Origin: an uncultured bacterium
GTDB lineage: Bacteria; Actinomycetota; Coriobacteriia; Coriobacteriales; Coriobacteriaceae
DNA: 64,000 bases
Direction: 5' to 3'
Assembly: GCA_905214465.1 (NCBI GenBank)
Contig: CAJMMD010000001.1
Location: 487-64,486, forward strand
Shown: piece after piece, positions 23,986-56,284 of the stretch
How the letters are laid out: each line of letters opens with the position of its first letter
Numbering within the stretch: the first letter of the stretch is position 1
Notes under the pieces: model-generated
Told to the model about the DNA's origin: nothing
The model's database searches: none
Seen by the model: the letters and a program-made list of their open reading frames with translations, nothing else
Program-made: the position numbers and the translations under genes

Positions 23986-24966
23986 TTACTCCCACTCCAC
24001 CGTGCCGACGGGCTTCGGCGTGAGGTCGTAGCACACTCGGCAGATGCCGGGGACCTCGGCGGTCACGCGAGCGGTAATGCGCTTGAGCAGCGCCCAGTCG
24101 AGCTCAGGCACCTCGGCGGTCATGACGTCGACGGTGTTGATGCAGCGAATAATGCAGGGCCAGTCGTAGGCGCGCTTGCCCTCGCGCACACCGGTAGCGC
24201 GGAAATCGGGCACTACGGCAAAGTACTGCCAGATGGTCAGGCCGGCCTTGTCGATCTCTTCGCGCACGATGGCATCGGCCTCGCGCAGCGCCTCGAGACG
24301 GTCACGGGTGATGGCGCCAAGGCAGCGGACGCCCAGGCCAGGACCGGGGAACGGCTGACGCTCAACCATGTTCTCGGGCAGGCCGAGCTCGCGGCCCACG
24401 ACGCGCACCTCGTCCTTGTACAGCAGCTTAACGGGCTCGCAGAGCTCAAATTGCAGATCCTCGGGCAGACCGCCAACGTTATGGTGAGCCTTCACGCCGT
24501 CCTGCGACTCCAGAATGTCGGGGTAGATAGTGCCCTGGGCGAGGAAGCTGACCTCATCGCCCACCTTTCGGGCCTCTTCCTCGAACACGCGGATAAACTC
24601 GGCGCCGATAATCTTGCGCTTGGCCTCGGGCTCGTCGACGTCGACGAGCTTATCGAGGAAGCGGTCGGTAGCGTCCACGTAAACCAGGTTGGCGTCCATC
24701 TGGTTCTGGAACACGTCGACGACCTGCTCGCTCTCGCCCTTGCGCATCAGGCCGTGGTTCACATGCACGCAGATGAGCTGCTTGCCGATGGCCTTGATGA
24801 GCAGCGCCGCGACGACCGAGCTGTCAACGCCGCCAGAAAGGGCAAGCAGGACCTTCTTGTTGCCGATCTGCTCACGGATTGCAGCAACCTGCTCTTCGAT
24901 GAACGCCTGAGCGAGTTCGGGAGTGGTGATACGCACCATGTCGTCGGGACGCTTGTTGGGATCCAT
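23986..24966 (-). CDS. GMP synthase-like ATP pyrophosphatase (PP-loop plus dimerisation domains only; no glutamine amidotransferase domain)
   Basis: 326 aa with PP-loop [17 protein letters not shown] and C-terminal ...[17 protein letters not shown]. It is a paralog of the C-terminal two-thirds of guaA at 54418-56016. Confidence 0.8.
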
Positions 24967-25236
24967 GCAGAGCTCCTTTTTGGTTCGATGGAAATGCGCC
25001 GCACGTATGCAGACGCACCGTCATATGACCTCATTATATGCAGAGCGAGGTTCGTTTCCCATCGCTGCGACGGAGCTTTTTGCAGGGGCGGCAGTTTTTC
25101 CTTATGCCAAGGTTAGCTCTACCTCGACAACGACCTTAAGAGCATCGCCAATAGACTCTTCCATTATTCGTTCGGCATAATCGTAGGCGATAACCACAAA
25201 TTCCAGTCCCGAGCAACAGGGGTAAAATGGCTGCTA

Positions 25237-45880: not shown

Positions 45881-46871
45881 TGATGGAGATGACTGCGCGC
45901 AGGCACGAGTGCGCCGCCGCACCTCATGGCCTGTTTCTCGGGTATTTGGGGCGCGCGGCGTTCAAAAATGTGAAGCGGTTCCGCATGGCTCGAGACTGAG
46001 CCGAGGTGCCCTACTTCTCGCCCTCCAGCAGCCCCACGATGCGGTCGATGTCGACGGCGAAGCGGGGCCTTCCCTCGCGCTCGTAGCGGTCGAGGCATGC
46101 CTGGCACTCGGAGACAATGCGCTTGGTGTTGCCGTCGATGATGCGCTGGGGCGTCTCGTAGTAGGCCGAACCCTCGGTCCTAAAGCGACGCTGCCCCTAC
46201 AGGTGAGCGATACTCTACGCCTTGCGGCACCCCGTCGCCCACGGAGGTTAAACGTACACGTAAGCCGTACTCTGAAAGCCGCGGTTTCCGGCAAGTAGTT
46301 TTTACCACGAAAACTCGCCTTAGATGCGCGTAGCTCTCAAAATAACACTCGCCGAGCCGTTACTTAACCGCCGACCTCGCTTGATGCAGAGGGCATTGGG
46401 GCAACAATAATGCGGATGAGTGCCGAGGATCCAAACGGGTCTCACACCGTCCTTCCAGCGTTCATGCGTCCGTCTTCATTGCCTGGACTAATTATTCCAA
46501 ATAGAGCGTTTTGGAGTGCATCGCGGCGTTGCATGAAAACCCCAGATAGCCTATTCTACCTAGGGTTTCATTGCTATTCACTACCTTTTGTAACGTGCCG
46601 TTTTAGGCTCTCGGTTTACTCCCACTCAGTAATCAAATCGTGCATTCCCATGGTCTCTCGTCTACGTGGTGCACTGCCGTCTCCCCATTTACTGGAATCA
46701 GGCGGTTTTCAGATACCAAAATTGAACTCAAAATGAACTCAACGCCAATTTCTGGCGAGAGGCTTCCAACGCTAGCAGTCAATACCGAGCACCACTATTT
46801 ATCACCATTCGCCGCCATCTTCATTTCATGTCCAATTGAATTTTTACGGCAATCACTACGGCTTCCAAACA

Positions 46872-47996
46872 TTAATCAACGGACACACCCCAAGGAAGAA
46901 CGTCTTTTCCCCTCCCGTTCGTCTTTCCCTTCCACGTTGCGAACAGGTATCTGTCGAACTCGAAGAACTCTGTTTCTCTATAGGGATGCTGTCTGTCATA
47001 GCTGCCAATATTCGTTATATATGCATGGTCGACAGACCTCAGTTCATAGTCTCTACATCTCAGCGACGGAGAGAGCTGTTTGTACAGGGCATAGTTGAAG
47101 GAATCATCTATTTTCATATGTTTAATGAGCGGAGAGTAGTCCTTGTGCTGATCATAATTAACAAATAGAGCGAGGTTGACGGCGCAGCGTGCGAATACGT
47201 CGTCTTCCACGCGCCGGGAATAATAGGCGACCCCGTCAAGACCATGCTTCTTACACGCCATCATTATTGCCTGGGGAACGATGTACTCAGACTTGAACGT
47301 TCTGTCAGCTTCGTCGATTCTGTACGAGGTCGCTATCATGAGCATGAATAGTTTAAGCCAGCAATGAACGCGCCCCTCATCGAAACCGTCCAAGCCGCCG
47401 AAATCTCTCACATTGATTGCCAAGTTAAGTATTTTCTGCGTGCCGTCTAAAACTACCGGTGAGCCGTTGAAATCGATTTCCGGTGGAAATCCCGTCTCTA
47501 TCCAGCATCCATACGAAGAATTTGCAAGATAATAGGCCGGGCTGCCGGGGATACTAAACCTGTAGCTTCCGGTCTTAGATCTCAGGCTCTTCGGCAAATG
47601 CAACATCTCTTTTGCCGCATAGGCGCTAGAAGGACTCCCTGTTCTCGACCGAAAGAATTGTATCTCCTGGCTCCTGTTCCCCGGAAAGGCCCAACTCTCA
47701 TCTAGCTTTGCAACCGCAAAAGGATCGGAACGAACTTCTGAAACCAAATTCCTGATGATTGTGTTGCTTTTTGCAATATCGGCCTTGTAGTAACTACGCA
47801 GGGCTTCGAGGATTTTATTTCGATATTTCTTTATTATTGCCAGGCTGCCATCATCCGCACCGGCCTTTTCCGCCTGGTTGAGCACAATGTTGTATTTCTC
47901 CATAAGGCGGGAATAGTAGTCATTGTCCAGTTTGACAACAAACGGAGCATATAGGTCATTACAGATGAAATCATTCAACAACCAAGATAACCCCAT
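46872..47996 (-). CDS. RES-domain protein (NAD+-targeting toxin family) with N- and C-terminal extensions
   Basis: RES motifs: GSYRFSIPGSPAYYLANSSYGCWIE (Arg..Glu) and GLDGVAYYSRRVEDDVFARCAVNLALF (Ser). Low-GC coding. The start is taken at MGLSW; the track ORF extends to 48302 into GC-rich DNA, so the true start is uncertain. Confidence 0.6.
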   Translation of the reverse strand: MGLSWLLNDFICNDLYAPFVVKLDNDYYSRLMEKYNIVLNQAEKAGADDGSLAIIKKYRNKILEALRSYYKADIAKSNTIIRNLVSEVRSDPFAVAKLDESWAFPGNRSQEIQFFRSRTGSPSSAYAAKEMLHLPKSLRSKTGSYRFSIPGSPAYYLANSSYGCWIETGFPPEIDFNGSPVVLDGTQKILNLAINVRDFGGLDGFDEGRVHCWLKLFMLMIATSYRIDEADRTFKSEYIVPQAIMMACKKHGLDGVAYYSRRVEDDVFARCAVNLALFVNYDQHKDYSPLIKHMKIDDSFNYALYKQLSPSLRCRDYELRSVDHAYITNIGSYDRQHPYRETEFFEFDRYLFATWKGKTNGRGKDVLPWGVSVD

Positions 47997-48351
47997 CTTT
48001 GCACCATCCTCAATTAGATCCCAGTTGGTCAGCACATCCTTAATGTCGAATATACATCCTGTACTATCCGAAGCAAAACGAACTGGTCGGTTTCGAATAG
48101 CGAATGCCGGGCACACTACACAAGAACGCCCCAAGCTATTACGTTTAGGAGGAAAGCCGCGCTGTATATGGATGCAAACTCGGCAAACCAGGAAGCATGC
48201 AAACTGTGTGCTCCCCACCCTGACGCCCTCTTTCAAGTCGACTGGGCGCAGAAAAAAGATCCCGCAGCGCCCCAAAGCCATCAGTGCTCCCGAATAATGC
48301 AAACACTCCGTTAATGGACCGTATTATTGCGGTTTAGCAAGGAATGCCCCC

Positions 48352-48789
48352 TTAACCGCCAAAATCTACCTTCCGCCGAACCCGCGCTTCCAGTCGAGGT
48401 ACTCCTCCTCGGAGATCTCCCCGGAGTCCCGTCTCGCGCGCATCGCGGCCCATGCCGCTGCAGCATATGAGAACCACGAGGTCGCGCGCGACCCAGATCC
48501 CGTCGACGTAGAGCACGCGGTGGAGCTCGCCGTCGGGGACGGGCATGGGCCAGACCTCCCAGAACTCGGCCGTCCTGCGCCTGAAGGAGCGCCCGCCGCC
48601 CGGCATCATGGCCTGCGAGTCCTTCGAGAGGAGCTACCCGAGGAACTCCCCGAGCCTTGTCGCCGTGTCGTCGTACCTCACCGTCGTCGACGCACCGCAG
48701 GCCGTGCACCTCCACCGCTGGGACCCCGATGAGGTCCTGCCGTTGCGCTTGGTCCGACCGCCGCAGTAGGGGCAATAAACGGCCTTCAT
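48352..48789 (-). mobile_element. Truncated IS transposase remnant (zinc-ribbon N-terminus plus frameshifted second frame)
   Basis: Frame 1 gives MKAVYCPYCGGRTKRNGRTSSGSQRWRCTACGASTTV...EFLG*. A +1 shifted frame continues LLSKDSQAMMPGG...FWEVWPMPVPDGELHRVLYVDGIWVARDLVVLICCSG. This is an IS1/IS1595-like arrangement. It is GC-rich and incomplete. Confidence 0.5.
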
Positions 48790-49617
48790 GGGCACCTCTT
48801 CCGAAAGCGTATTTAACGGTTCCGGAAAAGGTTATCTACCTGCGAGAACGATAGGCAACCGGACACACATTCTGTCCGAGCGGTTAAAAGCGGGCACGGA
48901 ATTTAAACGGCTGAAAAAGGGGCATCGACCTGCGCCGATGCCCCCAACGTGGACACATATTTTGTCCTATAAGCCCGGCTTTGCCCTGCAGCGTTGCCGA
49001 AACAGCATCAGGCGGTACTCGACGGTATCAAAACGCGAGTTTAGAAGCCAGTTCCCGTTATTCCCACTCTTTCACGCTCGTTTGCCGTTGTGTCAATCCA
49101 GTTAACTCCAGCTGGGTCGTCGATCTTGGCCGTCTTGCCACCGAATCCCGCCGCGTGTCTCCACGTAAGCGTTCGGCACAAATCCTGGGACAAATTCGCA
49201 AACTATTCGTCCGCACCCCAACCGCAAACCCGCAGTTTCATTTTTGTCCCGGAGACAAAAACGGGTTGGTTTTGAGGGCTCAAAACACCCGAATACAGGA
49301 GCCAAACCCATCGAATGATCGATTGACGACCACGGCGCGAGATAAATCGTAGCCAGTGGCTTTGCGGTCTTGCGTTTCCGCAGGTCAACAATGATGCAAA
49401 ATAGATATGAACGATAGAATCGTCGCAAGTGGCTAACTCTCGTCAAAGGTTCGGAGGCGTCCTTTCGTCCCTCCAGTATCGTGCTGTATCGCTCCGTTAT
49501 AATACGCTCAATGCATAAACGGTTTTCGCAACATAGTATATGTTGGAGCCTAAAGAACTACTATCCGTTCCTTTTTCTCTCGTAGGCAGGGATACATTTG
49601 ATTGTTCAATATGAAGC

Positions 49618-50751
49618 ATGCAACAACAAGTTGCTCGATCTCTCAGTAAAACCAAAGAACACCAGAGTGAAACTATCCTGCCGTCAACTAACTATCAGGT
49701 ATTTGAAATGACGTATAGATTTATCTCGACAGAAAGAGGGACTCCCAGTGGCAACAGGGCTGAAACCTGTGCTCTGTTGCATATGATGTGTTTTGCCCCT
49801 GAACGCGATGAAATCGATTTGTTCGCCATTGACTGCTTTAATGACGTTACAGGAATGGACAACTCCTGTAATACCCTTCATGATGTGCAGTCAAAAGGCG
49901 AAACAAAAATAACCCCAGCAAAGCTGGGCGAGTATCTAGCTACGCTTTTTGAAAATAGAGCAAGCGAATTCTCAAAGTATTTCGACACGCTTACCCTGTT
50001 TGTCGGGGGCGTATCCCCAACCACACTTGAGAATCCGACGCTAACGGAATTTCGATTTCAACAGCTGAAGCCAAAATCGCAGGCGAGCGTCCGTGAGCAT
50101 CTCATCGAGGCGTGCAAGAAGAGGCACAACGACATTCCCGACGGCCTGATCGATGACGACGCCATTGACGACTTCTTGAGCTGTGTTAGATTCGTTGTAG
50201 CAAAGAAGGACGAGACCGAGTACATCCGCGCTCTTGCGCACAACTCTTCCGCTCTTTTAACGGACAAGCGGACCCTTCTTGGTATTTTTGGAGCGATACG
50301 CGACCAACAGTCATCGCTCAAAAACCGTGCCGGAATTGCCGGAAGAGCCATAGACAGGCCTGACGCTGTCATGGATTTCGGACGCACCATGTCAACCCGT
50401 CAGATTCGTCTGTTGGTAATTCAGCGCCTCCTCAATATGAGTTTTCTGACAGAAGAATCTCCCGACAGTTTCCGGCCTTATCTCAATTCGCTTCCTCCGG
50501 AAATGCGAATTGAAGACGTGGAGGAAGACTGCAGGAATGAACTTTGCCTTCAGTATTTTGACAAAAACAACCTTGCTGCTTTCTGGCATCTTCTGGACGA
50601 AATCGTAGACATCATTCAGGATGACCCCAAAGCCGATATACAGCAGATTTATAGCAAGATCGGCGAAGGCACCTTAGCCTCCTGCACTCAGCTGACCAGA
50701 AGATCTCACCTCTACTTTATTGCGACCATTAAGGATGGACTTCGCCCATGA
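49618..50751 (+). CDS. Hypothetical protein (377 aa), candidate LmuA-like effector partner of the downstream SMC-like ATPase
   Basis: Low-GC. No recognisable domain. A possible PD-(D/E)xK-like arrangement (AETCALL ... IDLFAID ... LHDVQSK) near the N-terminus is speculative. Its stop overlaps the next gene's ATG (ATGA). Confidence 0.55.
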   Translation: MQQQVARSLSKTKEHQSETILPSTNYQVFEMTYRFISTERGTPSGNRAETCALLHMMCFAPERDEIDLFAIDCFNDVTGMDNSCNTLHDVQSKGETKITPAKLGEYLATLFENRASEFSKYFDTLTLFVGGVSPTTLENPTLTEFRFQQLKPKSQASVREHLIEACKKRHNDIPDGLIDDDAIDDFLSCVRFVVAKKDETEYIRALAHNSSALLTDKRTLLGIFGAIRDQQSSLKNRAGIAGRAIDRPDAVMDFGRTMSTRQIRLLVIQRLLNMSFLTEESPDSFRPYLNSLPPEMRIEDVEEDCRNELCLQYFDKNNLAAFWHLLDEIVDIIQDDPKADIQQIYSKIGEGTLASCTQLTRRSHLYFIATIKDGLRP

Positions 50752-52364
50752 TTAGCATCAAAACCGTTTACATAGGCAACGAGAACGAATCCTACATCCA
50801 GGATGATTTCGCAATCGCTGGCGTGAACATCATTTCTAGCGATGAAAACCATGTTGGTAAGACCATCGTTATGCAGGCAATAATGTATGCGCTTGGATCT
50901 GAAGCACGCTTCCCTCCAAGCTTCAAAAGCAACGAATATGTCTTTATTGTTGACCTCGAAGTTGATGGACGCGGACTTTCCATACTAAGAAACAGGGATT
51001 CGTTTGTCGTGCTGGATGGAGGAACGATTATCCCAATCGAAAGCTCGGGTGACTTTGACGTTTTCTGGAACGACCATATCTCACCTTTACCCACCATTAC
51101 TAAAGATGGTAGTCAGACAATAGTGGGACTCCCTCTCTACACTCAAATTGCTTTCGTTCCTCAGGCCGGTAGAAGCACTGCCCGTACCAGTACAAGCTAT
51201 TTCAACAAAGACGACTTTAAGGAAATGGTCTATGCCTTAAAGGGCTTAGATGCTCGTACCTTGGATAAGAAATCTATTGCAGACCTCAAGAACAAGAGGA
51301 GCGCTCTTAAAACCAGAAGAGAAGAGCTTGCCAAGCAGGCATCGACACTACGTAAAATTGGAACCTCGCTTGCCGTGGTTAGCCCAACAGCAAATAGAGA
51401 AGAGACTGCTCGTTTCATCGAGCGACTCAATTTCCTAAAGAATTCGATAGTCAGCCTCACGAATGAGCGCAACCATGCTCATACGCGCCGAGCCAAGAAT
51501 CAGGCAGTAAAGAAGGAGCTGAATTCCTTAAATCGGGAAATCAAGGTCGGCTCCGTGATTTGCATGAACTGTGGATCGGATGAGATTGGTTACAAGCTTC
51601 CAGGATCAGATTATGTGTTTGACATAACGACGAGTGAAATGAGGTCGCAAATCCTTCTGAGCGTCCAACGTAAGATCGACGCATATCAAAAAGAGATCGA
51701 GGAGCTCGACCTGGAGATTCGCGAACTCCAAAATCAATTCAATAAGCTTGCGGATTCTAGGGAAATAACCCTGGAGGATATTTTTGCTGCACGTCAGGAC
51801 TATGCCGACCTTGAAGCAATTGATCGAGAGATAACCAATATCTCGGACCAAATCGACGGTATCGACGAACAGCTCAAAGAGGCAAAAACAATCGATAAAG
51901 AGCTTAGCGAGGACAGAGCGGATTTCAATGCGGCCCTGCTAGCCACTATGAATGACGTGCGCCGCACAATCAATGAAAGTGATTCCGTCGAAGATTACAC
52001 GGACCTTTTTACTACCAACAACAGCCCCTATATCGGAAGCGAAGCTACCGAGTTCTTTCTTGCAAAAACCTATTCACTTGCCAAGCACATACATCACGGC
52101 TTACCTATTGTTATTGACTCTTTTCGCGCCGAAGAGCTATCGACAGGAAGGGAGGAACGTGTGCTCCCCCTGTTTATCGATCTCCCTAATCAGGTTATTT
52201 TCAGTGCTACCTTGAAGGGTGAAGAAGTTGGAAAATATCACGGACGTGAAGGAATTAATAGTATTGAATATATAGGCTATACGCAAAATAAGCTTCTCTC
52301 CAATCGTGACAACGAGAGGTTTTTGTCGAAAGTCGCTGATTTCGGCATCAAGCTCAATGGGTAG
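50748..52364 (+). CDS. SMC/Rad50-like ABC-type ATPase with a central coiled coil and CxxC hook (LmuB-like)
   Basis: N-terminal P-loop SDENHVGKTIVMQAIMYALG, ~300 aa of heptad-rich coiled coil with ICMNCG at its midpoint, and a C-terminal Walker-B/D-loop-like LPIVIDSFRAEELS. 538 aa. Confidence 0.65.
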   Translation: MISIKTVYIGNENESYIQDDFAIAGVNIISSDENHVGKTIVMQAIMYALGSEARFPPSFKSNEYVFIVDLEVDGRGLSILRNRDSFVVLDGGTIIPIESSGDFDVFWNDHISPLPTITKDGSQTIVGLPLYTQIAFVPQAGRSTARTSTSYFNKDDFKEMVYALKGLDARTLDKKSIADLKNKRSALKTRREELAKQASTLRKIGTSLAVVSPTANREETARFIERLNFLKNSIVSLTNERNHAHTRRAKNQAVKKELNSLNREIKVGSVICMNCGSDEIGYKLPGSDYVFDITTSEMRSQILLSVQRKIDAYQKEIEELDLEIRELQNQFNKLADSREITLEDIFAARQDYADLEAIDREITNISDQIDGIDEQLKEAKTIDKELSEDRADFNAALLATMNDVRRTINESDSVEDYTDLFTTNNSPYIGSEATEFFLAKTYSLAKHIHHGLPIVIDSFRAEELSTGREERVLPLFIDLPNQVIFSATLKGEEVGKYHGREGINSIEYIGYTQNKLLSNRDNERFLSKVADFGIKLNG

Positions 52365-52953
52365 GCTCCATTTGGCGCAAGGATCGTCCTGCATTCGCCT
52401 GTATTCACATGAATGCAGGACATCGTTGAAACGCTGATCGATTTACCCAAAAACTGTTTAGGCCGGCGGCGCAAAACCGGTTTCGCCACCCACTCATCCC
52501 TTTGCAGCATAACCATCCTATTAGCCACATTATATCCCAACAGATGGGCACCATTTATCTGGGTGCACCTGGGGCAACGGATTGAAAAACCTGCATAAGA
52601 TCGTTCGCAGAACACGCAACATCAAACACGACAGAAGAGGCGAACGACAGATGCCGGACCCCGGACGATAGCACCGCGGGAGACGAGCATTCCGACCACA
52701 ACCGAACAACTCCAGTTATTAGGCAGGCGCCCGCATGGGCGTCTTTTACTTTTCAGGGACTTGGCTGCCAGCTAAGGCACGCGTCTCATGGCCGTTTCGT
52801 GAAGGCACGACCAGCTCGACCCAGCTCGACCCGTCTCCGCTCCCGTCGTGCGCGCCAACCGCAATCAGGCGGTTCAATCGTCGCGCAGACGAAAACGCAC
52901 GCGGGAGCGCGCGGGCGCATCGCGCGGTGCCGCACGGGAAGATTGGAGGAACC

Positions 52954-53172
52954 ATGGCACGCACAGCCGAATGCGCCGCGCCCGAGGGCAACCAAGATCG
53001 CGACGAATGGATGACGGTGATCGAGATGCAGGAGTACATGAGGGCGAGCCGAAACAAGGCGTACGGCCTCATCCGGTCGGGAAAGATCGACTCGTACAGG
53101 CTCGGCAGGAAGCTCCTGGTTTCGAGGGCGTCAGTAGACGCCTACATCGAGTCGAGGAGCGGGAGGAAATGA
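52954..53172 (+). CDS. Excisionase/AlpA-family helix-turn-helix DNA-binding protein (72 aa)
   Basis: The start is MARTAEC after ggaggaacc. WMTVIEMQEYMRASRNKAYGLIRSGKIDSYRLGRKLLVSRASVDAYI is a typical Xis-type wHTH. Confidence 0.55.
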   Translation: MARTAECAAPEGNQDRDEWMTVIEMQEYMRASRNKAYGLIRSGKIDSYRLGRKLLVSRASVDAYIESRSGRK

Positions 53173-53250
53173 CGGCGGCGACCGCCCCGGGAGCCGCCCG
53201 CGGCCGGGGACGCGAGGGAGCCTCGAGACGAAAGGAGCTCGAGGACAACC

Positions 53251-53673
53251 ATGACCAAGAGCATTAGCGGGAGCCAGGTGAGGCTCATCGCATCGACCAA
53301 CGCGATATTCGGCACCGACGAGGCGTGCGCGATGCTGCGTATCAGCCGCGACGCAATGTACCGGCTCGCCCCCCTTGCATTCACCGCCAGCGCATGCTAT
53401 AAGGTTGTTGGTGGCTCATTAAGCTACCTCCAAGTGCCGGGGGAGTCCCCCGGCTATTTTTTTATCTATTCCATTAGGAGTCCCCATTGGCCAAGGAGCT
53501 CAGCATCTTCGTCGACGAGAGCGGCGACCGCGGCGGCAAAGCCCGTTACTACCTGCTCACACTCGTCTTTCACGACCAGGCAGACAGCATCGCCGGGGCG
53601 GTCACGGGCTATGAGGCCAAGCTTGCCAGGGCCGATCTCCCTAACATTCCGTTTCACTCCGAGCCTCTCATGA
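53251..53673 (+). CDS. Possible second AlpA-like HTH small protein (N-terminal ~60 aa plausible; remainder overlaps the DUF3800 gene and is doubtful)
   Basis: MTKSISGSQVRLIASTNAIFGTDEACAMLRISRDAMYRLA resembles an AlpA HTH. The frame has no stop until 53673, overlapping 53487-54161 in another frame. Confidence 0.25.
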   Translation: MTKSISGSQVRLIASTNAIFGTDEACAMLRISRDAMYRLAPLAFTASACYKVVGGSLSYLQVPGESPGYFFIYSIRSPHWPRSSASSSTRAATAAAKPVTTCSHSSFTTRQTASPGRSRAMRPSLPGPISLTFRFTPSLS

Positions 53674-54161
53674 ACGGGCACAAGGACTATGAGTTTCTTG
53701 ACATCGAGCAGCGCAAGGTGATGCTCGCCTACTTCTCCTCGTTCATCCGCAAACTTCCCATTTCCTATATCACGTTCGTCTACCGCCGCAGCCAGTTCGA
53801 AGACCCGGCAAGGCTAATGGAGCGTATGGGGCGCGATATCTCCTCTGCCATGATTGAACACCTGGGCTTCTTTCAATCCTTCGACGATGTGAAGGTTTAC
53901 TACGACAACGGTCAGGACATTGTCAAGCAGGCGCTCGACCGCTCGGTGGGCAAGGTCCTCTCAAAAGGGGTCGTCCGACGCCGCAAGACCTCGATGACCG
54001 ACTACCGCCTCGAGCAAGTGGCGGATTACCTCTGCACCATCGAACTTGCCTTGGTCAAGTACGAGGCCAAGGAGAACGGTGAGACGTACAACAAGTTCTT
54101 CGGAGGTATAGGCTCTTTCAAGAGGAACTGGCTCAAGCAAGCCCGCAGCAAGCGGATATAG
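53487..54161 (+). CDS. DUF3800-domain protein
   Basis: N-terminal MAKELSIFVDESGDRGG... (the IxxDESG signature of DUF3800); 224 aa. The family is common in mobile/defence islands. Confidence 0.7.
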   Translation: MAKELSIFVDESGDRGGKARYYLLTLVFHDQADSIAGAVTGYEAKLARADLPNIPFHSEPLMNGHKDYEFLDIEQRKVMLAYFSSFIRKLPISYITFVYRRSQFEDPARLMERMGRDISSAMIEHLGFFQSFDDVKVYYDNGQDIVKQALDRSVGKVLSKGVVRRRKTSMTDYRLEQVADYLCTIELALVKYEAKENGETYNKFFGGIGSFKRNWLKQARSKRI

Positions 54162-54399: not shown

Positions 54400-54417
54400 G
54401 AAATCAACGAATATCGT

Positions 54418-56016
54418 TTACTCCCACTCGATCGTCGCGGGCGGCTTGGACGTGATGTCGTAGCACACGCGGTTGGCGCCGGGGACCTCGGCAACGATGC
54501 GGCCCGAGATGCGGGCCAGGACGTCGTAGGGCAGCTTGGCCCAGTCGGCGGTCATGGCATCGCTGGACTCGACGGCGCGCAGGATGATCGGGCGCTGGTA
54601 GGTGCGCTCGTCGCCCATAACGCCCACGGACTTAATGTCGGGCAGGACCGCGAAATACTGCCAGCAGCTGTGCTCGGAGTTGCGCTCGCCGGTCTGCTCA
54701 AACAGACGCTGGTTGTAGGCGTCGAGCTCCTCGCGCACGATAGCGTCGGCATTCTTGAGAATCTCGAGCTTCTCCTTGTCGACCGCACCGATGATGCGGA
54801 TGGCCAGACCCGGGCCCGGGAAAGGCTGACGGAACACGATATGACCCGGCAGGCCAAGCGCCAGACCAAGTGCGCGGACCTCGTCCTTAAAGAAGTGGTC
54901 GAGCGGCTCAATAAGGTCGAAGTGCACGCCCTCGGGGAACGGGATCAGGTTGTGGTGGCTCTTGATGGTGGCCGTCTTGCCACCCGTCTTGCGAGCGCCG
55001 GACTCGATGATGTCGGGGTAGATGGTGCCCTGAGCCAGGTACTTGACCGGCTTGCCATCGGTCTCAAGCTGTTGCGCCACGGCGAAGAACTCTTTCCAGA
55101 ACTGCGTACCGATGATGCGGCGCTTCTCCTCGGGCTCGGTCACGCCGGCCAGAAGCTCGGCATAACGGTCCTCGGCGTGGACGTGGATAAAGTCGACGTC
55201 AAACTGCTTGGTGAAGACCTCCTCCACCTGCTCGGGCTCGCCCTTGCGCAGCAGGCCGTGGTTGATGAACACGCAGGTCATCTGCTTGCCCACGGCACGG
55301 GCGCCCAGTGCAGCCACGACGGAGGAATCGACACCGCCAGACAGGGCCAAAATCACGCGGTCGTCGCCGACCTTCTCGCGGAACTCGGCCGTCATGGTCT
55401 CGACCAGGTTGTCCATGCTCCAGTTGGGCTCCAGGCCGCAGATCTCAAACAGGAAGTTGCTCAGCAGCTGCTGACCGTACTCGGAGTGCTTGACCTCGGG
55501 GTGGAACTGCGTGGTGAAAATCTTGCGCTCGACGCACTCCATGGCGGCAACCGGGCACACGTCAGTGCTGGCGGTAACGGTAAAGCCCTCGGGCACCTCG
55601 GACACGGCGTCGCGGTGGCTCATCCACACGGTTTGCTCCATGGGCGTGGAGTTAAAGAGCTTGGCGCCGGCAGTGCGCGTAATAGTGGCGCGGCCGTACT
55701 CGCCCACCTCGGAGTGCCCGACCTTGCCGCCGAGCGTCACGGCCGTGATCTGATGGCCGTAGCAGAAGCCCAGGACGGGAAGGCCCAGGTCAAAGATGGC
55801 AGGATCGATGGACGGAGCGTCCTCGGCGTACACAGAGGCCGGGCCGCCAGAAAGGATGAGCGCAGAGGCGTTCATCTCGCGAATCTCATCGGCCGAGATG
55901 TCGCAGGGAACGATCTCGGAATACACGTTGAGGTCGCGGACGCGACGGGCAATGAGCTGACCGTACTGCGCACCAAAGTCGAGTACGAGGACCTTTGCGG
56001 AAGCCTTTTGATCCAT
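54418..56016 (-). CDS. guaA: GMP synthase (glutamine-hydrolysing), full length
   Basis: The start is MDQKASAKVLVLDFGAQYGQL (class-I GATase). PP-loop [14 protein letters not shown] and C-terminal ...CYDITSKPPATIEWE. The track ORF has a 42-codon spurious extension. Confidence 0.9.
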   Translation of the reverse strand: MDQKASAKVLVLDFGAQYGQLIARRVRDLNVYSEIVPCDISADEIREMNASALILSGGPASVYAEDAPSIDPAIFDLGLPVLGFCYGHQITAVTLGGKVGHSEVGEYGRATITRTAGAKLFNSTPMEQTVWMSHRDAVSEVPEGFTVTASTDVCPVAAMECVERKIFTTQFHPEVKHSEYGQQLLSNFLFEICGLEPNWSMDNLVETMTAEFREKVGDDRVILALSGGVDSSVVAALGARAVGKQMTCVFINHGLLRKGEPEQVEEVFTKQFDVDFIHVHAEDRYAELLAGVTEPEEKRRIIGTQFWKEFFAVAQQLETDGKPVKYLAQGTIYPDIIESGARKTGGKTATIKSHHNLIPFPEGVHFDLIEPLDHFFKDEVRALGLALGLPGHIVFRQPFPGPGLAIRIIGAVDKEKLEILKNADAIVREELDAYNQRLFEQTGERNSEHSCWQYFAVLPDIKSVGVMGDERTYQRPIILRAVESSDAMTADWAKLPYDVLARISGRIVAEVPGANRVCYDITSKPPATIEWE

Positions 56017-56284
56017 GGTTTCCCCCTCTTGTTGGCGGGGAGCCGGTGCCCACCCGCGTGAATGAACGAAAATAACTTCCATAGTGTACACGTTATATGG
56101 GGTTTCTCGTCCCTCGCGGCCATCAGCGCACGGCAAACGCACGACCTGGGCCCTTATTTGACGGCAATTGAAGTATTACTAAACATTACAGATGATGTAT
56201 TACGTTTGAACATTGGACGCCCTGTGCCACAATACTGCCGAACGACTCCGCCCTTGCGGCGACAAAACCGATAGGAATACCAGC

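Follow-up and report, generated by a model that had tools for sequence, protein, structure and literature searches.

Two overlapping genes in a 64,000-nucleotide stretch of DNA from an uncultured bacterium of the family Coriobacteriaceae (GenBank assembly GCA_905214465.1, contig CAJMMD010000001.1, positions 487 to 64,486; this whole stretch is referred to as the window) raise the question of which system they encode. A preliminary description, made from the sequence alone, had noted an effector-sized protein (here A) followed by an SMC/Rad50-like ATPase (here B), and had proposed a Lamassu-like LmuA–LmuB organisation with an effector of an undescribed class. The pair is in all likelihood a divergent type I Lamassu, the two-gene form of this abortive-infection system that lacks lmuC, and is identical to PDC-M22 of PADLOC. 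B is a short LmuB-type SMC/Rad50-like ABC ATPase, the presumed Lamassu sensor, and A is most likely a Cap4-like nuclease that has diverged past recognition by sequence profiles, rather than a new effector.

Both open reading frames (ORFs) lie on the + strand at the positions and in the order first described, 49618..50751 (377 amino acids, aa) and 50748..52364 (538 aa), with the stop codon of A overlapping the start codon of B. The length of 377 aa for the first protein has to be revised. Nearly all of 84 A homologs are about 347 aa long and align from residue 31 (92% query coverage), the PADLOC model for A begins at the same residue of the 377-aa ORF, and a 94%-identical locus (L002) carries a stop codon four codons 5′ of the Met that is equivalent to Met31. 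From homolog lengths, model start and upstream stop, the start of A is therefore most likely Met31 (window 49708), giving a product of 347 aa, and residues of A are counted from this position. The genes are as follows:

49708..50751, + strand: lmuA-like effector gene (A), 347 aa from Met31; the ORF opens at 49618 and its 30-codon extension is unconserved
50748..52364, + strand: lmuB-like gene (B) encoding a short SMC/Rad50-type ABC ATPase of 538 aa, assigned by PADLOC, profile, hhalign and Foldseek comparisons
50748..50751, + strand: ATGA stop/start overlap for translational coupling of A and B, read in the sequence

The low-GC island seen at first inspection is real: the GC content of the pair is 0.466, compared with 0.585 across the remaining window, and the GC content at third codon positions is 0.53 and 0.49 for the two genes compared with 0.83 for the neighbouring guaA gene. 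The pair is of foreign origin, as indicated by these differences. Scores from promoter and terminator scans did not exceed those of shuffled sequence.

A and B match the PDC-M22 models of PADLOC-DB v2.0.0 almost from end to end (PDC-M22A, PDLC04521, E = 6e-120, and PDC-M22B, PDLC04526, E = 1.9e-178, respectively) and their genes adjoin, so the locus is a member of PDC-M22. The PDC systems of PADLOC are unpublished candidates (PMC11811056), and PDC-M22 is a catalogue label without published function, mechanism or Lamassu link. A literature search on 'PDC-M22' found no mention of it, and RefSeq labels members of the clade as hypothetical proteins.

The link to Lamassu is provided at the sequence level by B. 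Pfam yields only a sub-threshold AAA_23 match; many PADLOC LmuB models match B, the best being PDLC00254 (E = 8.8e-26), and the LmuB model PDLC03860 spans residues 26–532. An alignment of 43 B-family sequences, used as a profile, matches PDB chain 9ux7_A ("Lamassu protein LmuB"; E = 6e-10, residues 19–496 against 19–536). B is connected by tblastn to a Bacillus cereus plasmid gene that is named lmuB in RefSeq, and hhalign matches the same alignment to this RefSeq-annotated LmuB across 505 columns at 99.5% probability (E = 3e-22), all motifs being in register. In the reverse direction, canonical LmuB matches the PDC-M22B model with E = 7e-28. B nevertheless differs from canonical type I LmuB, with which it shares about 21% identity (tblastn) and than which it is about 25 aa shorter.

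Structure leads to the same family. The top PDB match of the B model in Foldseek is 9ux7_A, the type I LmuB (E = 2e-19), followed by type II LmuB proteins and then by Rad50 and SMC heads. The AlphaFold model (pLDDT, the predicted local distance difference test score, 84) has a split head and two antiparallel helical arms, residues 174–260 and 296–409, with a small β element (residues 269–292) between them at the apex that holds both cysteines of a CxxC motif. The coiled-coil region comprises about 240 aa, with about 90–110 residues in each arm, rather than the roughly 300 aa estimated by eye. Four motifs were located in B:

50838..50864, + strand: Walker A/P-loop SDENHVGKT (residues 31–39), with Gly37, Lys38 and Thr39 invariant in the 43 sequences
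51561..51572, + strand: zinc-hook-like CMNC motif (residues 272–275) at the coiled-coil apex, with Cys272 and Cys275 invariant in the 43 sequences
52035..52043, + strand: ABC signature-like GSE, with Gly430 and Ser431 invariant and Glu432 nearly so
52104..52121, + strand: deviant Walker B PIVIDS (IVIDS being residues 454–458) lacking the catalytic Glu, with Asp457 and Ser458 invariant in the 43 sequences

The N-terminal P-loop, the apical CxxC and the Glu-less Walker B of the preliminary description are all borne out by this conservation. Aligned to B. cereus LmuB, the Walker A motif falls on GKS and the GSE on SGSG; the Q-loop residue Gln139 is invariant across the family. CMNC, a predicted zinc hook, pairs with CPYC of B. 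cereus LmuB in hhalign and with CQYC of 9ux7_A in the profile alignment. In short Lamassu LmuB proteins the Walker B consensus is hhhhD[Q/S/T/E] and the number of CxxC copies is 0–2 (PMC12663957); IVIDS fits this consensus, and the missing Glu is the norm in the group. The motif set of short LmuB proteins, Walker A GK[S/T] (GKT, residues 37–39) with a Glu-less Walker B, is present in B. Type I LmuB accordingly resembles B as a short SMC-like ATPase with a Walker A motif, a single apical CxxC and a Walker B lacking Glu, and type II LmuB (Vibrio cholerae and Salmonella enterica LmuACB; PDB 9hqu, 9hqx, 9hr5, 9uxh and 9nyg) shares the fold; Vibrio LmuB, however, lacks the zinc hook, the cysteines of which are invariant in the B family.

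As a separate observation, the third-best PDB match in the fold search with B is an integrative model of YYDD–YYDB (9a6c_A, E = 1.5e-12), which stands among the Lamassu LmuB proteins and suggests that YYDD–YYDB may be another LmuB-like two-component system.

A housekeeping role in DNA repair, with the pair as a module of the SbcCD/Rad50–Mre11 type, has to be considered because the fold of B also resembles Rad50 and SMC heads and because SbcCD is the proposed ancestor of Lamassu (PMC12663957). This explanation is scarcely credible. The coiled coil of B is short and its Walker B lacks the catalytic Glu, the partner protein has a PD-(D/E)xK nuclease fold and not that of an Mre11/SbcD phosphoesterase (A has no Pfam Metallophos match), and the taxonomic spread is patchy, with foreign composition and a mobile context (see below).

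The gene organisation points to type I Lamassu as well. In a synteny scan restricted to one genome per species, relatives of A are encoded at 52 loci in about nine phyla, according to the organism names in the records (Actinomycetota, Bacillota, Patescibacteria, Pseudomonadota, Desulfobacterota, Melainabacteria, Bacteroidota, Ignavibacteria and "Tenericutes"). Every locus that is not ended by a contig edge continues with a B-family gene in the same orientation, apparently truncated at one of them (L012), so that the pair is kept as a unit in other genomes. The stop of A overlaps the start of B by 1–17 nt at 48 of 49 homologous junctions, which leaves no space for a gene between them. The A family comprises 358 homologous clusters at 50% identity and the B family more than 155; taken with the synteny in 52 genomes, these counts place the pairing far beyond chance.

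The absence of an lmuC-like third gene, noted earlier for the window, extends to the family: when all neighbouring ORFs of 50 aa or more, up to 3 kb away, were clustered across 49 loci, no recurrent third family emerged, the commonest being a serine recombinase and a tyrosine integrase with five loci each. Since there is no lmuC and A precedes B, the organisation matches that of type I Lamassu (clade S, "loss of LmuC"), as exemplified by Bacillus cellulasensis NIO-1130 (BcLmuAB, PDB 9ux7/9ux8), in which the two genes are arranged as lmuA then lmuB without lmuC; the canonical B. cereus Lamassu operon has the same order. Type II Lamassu, in contrast, possesses lmuC (DdmB), which the window pair and the 52 related loci lack.

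Protein A presents the harder part of the question. Its domains and conserved positions, with invariance taken from an alignment of 49 A-family sequences, are as follows:

49708..50202, + strand: N-terminal Cap4/DUF4297-like PD-(D/E)xK nuclease domain (residues 1–165; boundary approximate) with an α-β-β-β-α-β core
50203..50748, + strand: C-terminal domain (residues 166–347), all-helical in the AlphaFold2 secondary structure
49828..49896, + strand: putative active-site motif IDCFNDVTGMDNSCNTLHDVQSK, with Asp42, Asp46, Asp59, Gln61 and Lys63 invariant
49762-49764, + strand: helix residue Glu19, invariant

The first protein had been called domain-less, which stands insofar as Pfam and NCBIfam give no match, and fails insofar as its fold is that of a Cap4-like nuclease. 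The secondary structure of the N-terminal domain (helix 13–28, strands 38–41, 47–50 and 57–63, helix 70–85, strand 92–99) places the invariant residues Glu19, Asp42, Asp46, Asp59, Gln61 and Lys63 on the expected helix and strands. Fold matches of A include LmuA, Cap4, the Avs3 nuclease, HamA, MspJI and other restriction endonucleases; its top Foldseek match is the Salmonella LmuA tetramer, it is aligned over its full length to the LmuA chains 9hr5_A and 9nxx_D, and the BcLmuAB complex is the best PDB fold match for both window proteins. The combination expected of LmuA, a Cap4-type PD-(D/E)xK fold followed by a helical C-terminal domain, is thus present in the model. In type I LmuA the Cap4-like nuclease is likewise N-terminal, with the QxK lysine about 60 residues in and a helical C-terminal domain behind it, and type II LmuA joins a Cap4-like nuclease to an oligomerising C-terminal domain. 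The C-terminal domain of A is, by analogy, presumed to serve in LmuB binding and oligomerisation. A parallel motif, MDCIDDV...YQVK, occurs in canonical type I LmuA, where Asp51, Asp54, Asp55, Gln72 and Lys74 are invariant, and the published catalytic lysines are Lys59 in BcLmuA, Lys68 in the Salmonella enterica protein, and Lys57.

Other systems with related nucleases are set apart by their partners and accessory domains. Unlike Cap4 of the cyclic-oligonucleotide-based anti-phage signalling system (CBASS), which joins a DUF4297 nuclease to SAVED, A has no SAVED match and ends in an all-helical domain, and it is invariably paired with the SMC-like B and not with a CD-NTase. HerA–DUF4297, Hachiman HamA and Avs3 differ from the pair in that no HerA, helicase or STAND partner is present and an SMC-like ATPase takes that place; the Rad50–Mre11/SbcCD assembly differs in the nuclease, as described above, and in the length of the coiled coil.

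Several results weigh against the assignment to type I Lamassu. No Pfam family, including DUF4297/Cap4_nuclease (PF14130), matches A or its 48 aligned homologs, and A itself finds no match in NCBIfam or among the PADLOC LmuA models; recognition by PF14130 or an LmuA hidden Markov model (HMM), which would be expected of an LmuA protein, therefore fails. The HMM searches proposed at the outset consequently divide, with B recognised as LmuB and both proteins as PDC-M22. When the A-family alignment was compared by hhalign with a profile of 23 canonical LmuA sequences, the full-length probability was below 1% and that of the N-terminal domains 5% (E = 0.007), neither being significant; in the latter alignment the DCxxDV motifs are in register and the QxK is offset by one residue. 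The putative equivalence of Lys63 to the published catalytic lysines is drawn from position and motif only. TM-scores of A in Foldseek are low (0.34–0.40) and the global root-mean-square deviation is high, so that agreement is confined to the fold at domain level and to the succession of local structures. In addition, no experimental test of the PDC-M22 clade was found in the searchable literature. A was likewise left unidentified by phmmer and profile searches against PDB sequences and by hhalign with one canonical LmuA sequence, and when 1.84 billion proteins were searched exhaustively by profile, the A family alone was returned. The assignment of A therefore rests on fold, motif and partnership with B, and not on sequence homology.

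Two metagenomic proteins (P0328 and P0333) carry a PDC-M22A N-terminal domain of about 155–160 aa, joined in the first to the C-terminal half of a Septu PtuA-like ATPase and in the second to a Mur ligase middle domain. They were considered as bridges to DUF4297 consisting of the N-terminal domain alone and were rejected on account of these foreign parts; they are either assembly or gene-call chimeras or products of genuine domain shuffling within defence islands.

The divergence of A bears most directly on an alternative in which the pair is a distinct SMC–nuclease system, formed when an LmuB-like ancestor was combined with an unrelated, recruited PD-(D/E)xK nuclease bearing another C-terminal domain. 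Trigger, stoichiometry or activation could then differ, for example through constitutive cleavage guided by B instead of release and tetramerisation. It accounts for the lack of a significant profile relationship between A and canonical LmuA, the PADLOC curators list PDC-M22 apart from Lamassu, and B has 538 aa compared with an average of about 600 aa for short LmuB; LmuA proteins of types I and II also differ greatly in binding mode and in each of their domains, which has been counted in its favour. Set against the LmuB identity of B, the lmuC-less order and the fold and motif of A, this alternative is quite unlikely. A related proposition, in which A is a Cap4-like nuclease that was recruited independently and has its own C-terminal domain, would set PDC-M22 apart as an SMC–nuclease immune lineage of its own and is doubtful; trigger and activation would in that case be unlike the DNA-end sensing and LmuA tetramerisation switch of Lamassu. 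In a weaker form, PDC-M22 may be a new, deeply branching clade within type I Lamassu, missed by current DefenseFinder, NCBIfam and Pfam models; Lamassu would then be more prevalent than present counts show, especially in gut Coriobacteriia, Clostridia and marine Gammaproteobacteria.

For a type I Lamassu system, a course of action can be proposed by analogy with the solved complexes (10.1101/2025.06.23.660979; PMC12663957), from which stoichiometry, DNA-end sensing, oligomerisation switch and defence phenotype are carried over. B most likely dimerises via its coiled coils and the CxxC zinc hook, and the dimer would keep one A monomer inactive by holding the C-terminal domain of A near the hook, as in Bacillus LmuAB and in Vibrio and Salmonella LmuACB. 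ATP-dependent binding of the B heads to free DNA ends arising from phage or plasmid replication would release A, which would then oligomerise, probably into a tetramer, bringing nuclease domains together in a composite nuclease site. The putative active site consists of Glu19, Asp42/Asp46 and Asp59-x-Gln61-x-Lys63. Cleavage of DNA by A would kill or arrest the infected cell and so abort the infection.

The surroundings of the pair are those of a mobile element. A Collinsella metagenome-assembled genome (MAG) matches the window over 12.9 kb with 99.3% identity, and only a shorter segment around the pair is shared with L002, a MAG labelled Slackia; there the similarity reaches the end of the contig, and none is seen upstream of 49059. 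The relevant features on this side of the window are as follows:

49059..53180, no strand assigned: horizontally shared segment with the pair and a downstream excisionase-like helix-turn-helix (HTH) gene, 83–90% nucleotide identity to L002
52735-53172, + strand: HTH_17/excisionase-family gene (Pfam, E = 3e-12; TIGR01764, E = 1.5e-11)
53487-54161, + strand: gene for a DUF3800 protein between the pair and guaA (E = 1.3e-6)
54418-56142, − strand: guaA, neighbouring the pair

The GC content of the segment is 0.49 compared with 0.585, and the excisionase-like gene accompanies the pair in L002 as well. A 62%-identical pair in an Eggerthellaceae MAG lies about 2 kb from the 3′ end of a guaA ortholog, as in the window, and the pair was also found on plasmids of Paenibacillus larvae and Cytobacillus firmus, where both proteins are annotated as hypothetical. 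In Pectobacterium brasiliense (L055, 14931-15857 and 18105-21020) a BrxR-type WYL regulator (WHD_BrxR and WYL) stands about 2.3 kb away from the pair, which adjoins a DUF4942/CbtA–CbeA/RadC/YfjT block, surroundings typical of a defence or mobile island. With the MADS1 anti-phage HTH model (NF047737) the HTH_17 gene scored 24.7 bits (E = 2e-5), below the cutoff of 80.

Such carriers bear on the idea that the pair is mainly an anti-plasmid, inter-element competition or addiction device of the element that bears it. An excisionase-like gene accompanies the pair on its small, horizontally shared segment, and elsewhere the pair is borne by plasmids; no copy was found among 50,697 phage records; and the Lamassu system DdmABC removes plasmids, with several LmuACB systems showing plasmid-dependent toxicity. 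Published Lamassu systems, however, guard against phages and plasmids alike, and such a main role is highly improbable. It is compatible with a type I Lamassu system in any case, because the molecular mechanism would be the same.

The borders of the island are less sharply drawn. An exact 14-nt direct repeat, GTTTACTCCCACTC, occurs at 46614-46627 and 54416-54429, the second copy spanning the end of guaA from its last codons through the stop (− strand, ...EWE*), and could represent an att duplication on either side of a mosaic island of 7.8 kb at the 3′ end of guaA. It was not relied on as a border, given that the repeat does not extend further and about 0.2 chance occurrences are expected (an estimate); no integrase-sized ORF is evident within the interval, for which no scan was made, and the window contains no tRNAs. 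A second gene with a GMP-synthase C-terminal domain, NAD-synthase-like and distinct from guaA, lies at about 23987-24968. Its ortholog in Arabiibacter massiliensis (L056, 12846-13830; 82% nucleotide identity) directly adjoins a pair, and the interpretation of that locus as a guaA-adjacent insertion was rejected since blastn shows that the neighbour matches this paralog at about 24.0–25.0 kb of the window.

Two further features lie upstream of the pair:

46872-48302, − strand: RES-domain ORF of low GC content (0.42–0.50; Pfam PF08808, E = 3.5e-6, residues 242–381 of a 476-aa maximal ORF)
48311-48835, − strand: very GC-rich stretch (to 0.70) with broken reading frames

The true start of the RES ORF, judged by eye, is probably further inside; the ORF has no PADLOC match, and no Xre-type antitoxin partner was recognised beside it. 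It is a separate acquisition, because it lies outside the segment common to L002. The GC-rich stretch, between the RES gene and the pair, resembles by eye a degenerate insertion sequence or transposase remnant, and one of its fragments reads as a CxxC...CxxC zinc-ribbon N-terminus (MKAVYCPYCGG...WRCTACG).

The listing of the pair as PDC-M22 was already available in PADLOC-DB; new here is that the pair is placed within type I Lamassu, as a deeply divergent member that carries a Cap4-like nuclease. This placement in a known Lamassu type is mechanistically unsurprising and reveals neither a new effector class nor a new mechanism. Its value lies in annotation, in that a pair with about 358 A clusters at 50% identity in about nine phyla can now be assigned to type I Lamassu, and in the targets that it offers for mutagenesis, namely Lys63 of the predicted nuclease site in A, and Lys38 of the ATPase site and Cys272/Cys275 of the zinc hook in B. 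For the family, it indicates that sequence drift in LmuA can reach the point at which no HMM or profile–profile signal remains, while LmuB stays recognisable. This contrast bears on defence-system censuses and on whether effector exchange or co-divergence prevails in Lamassu.

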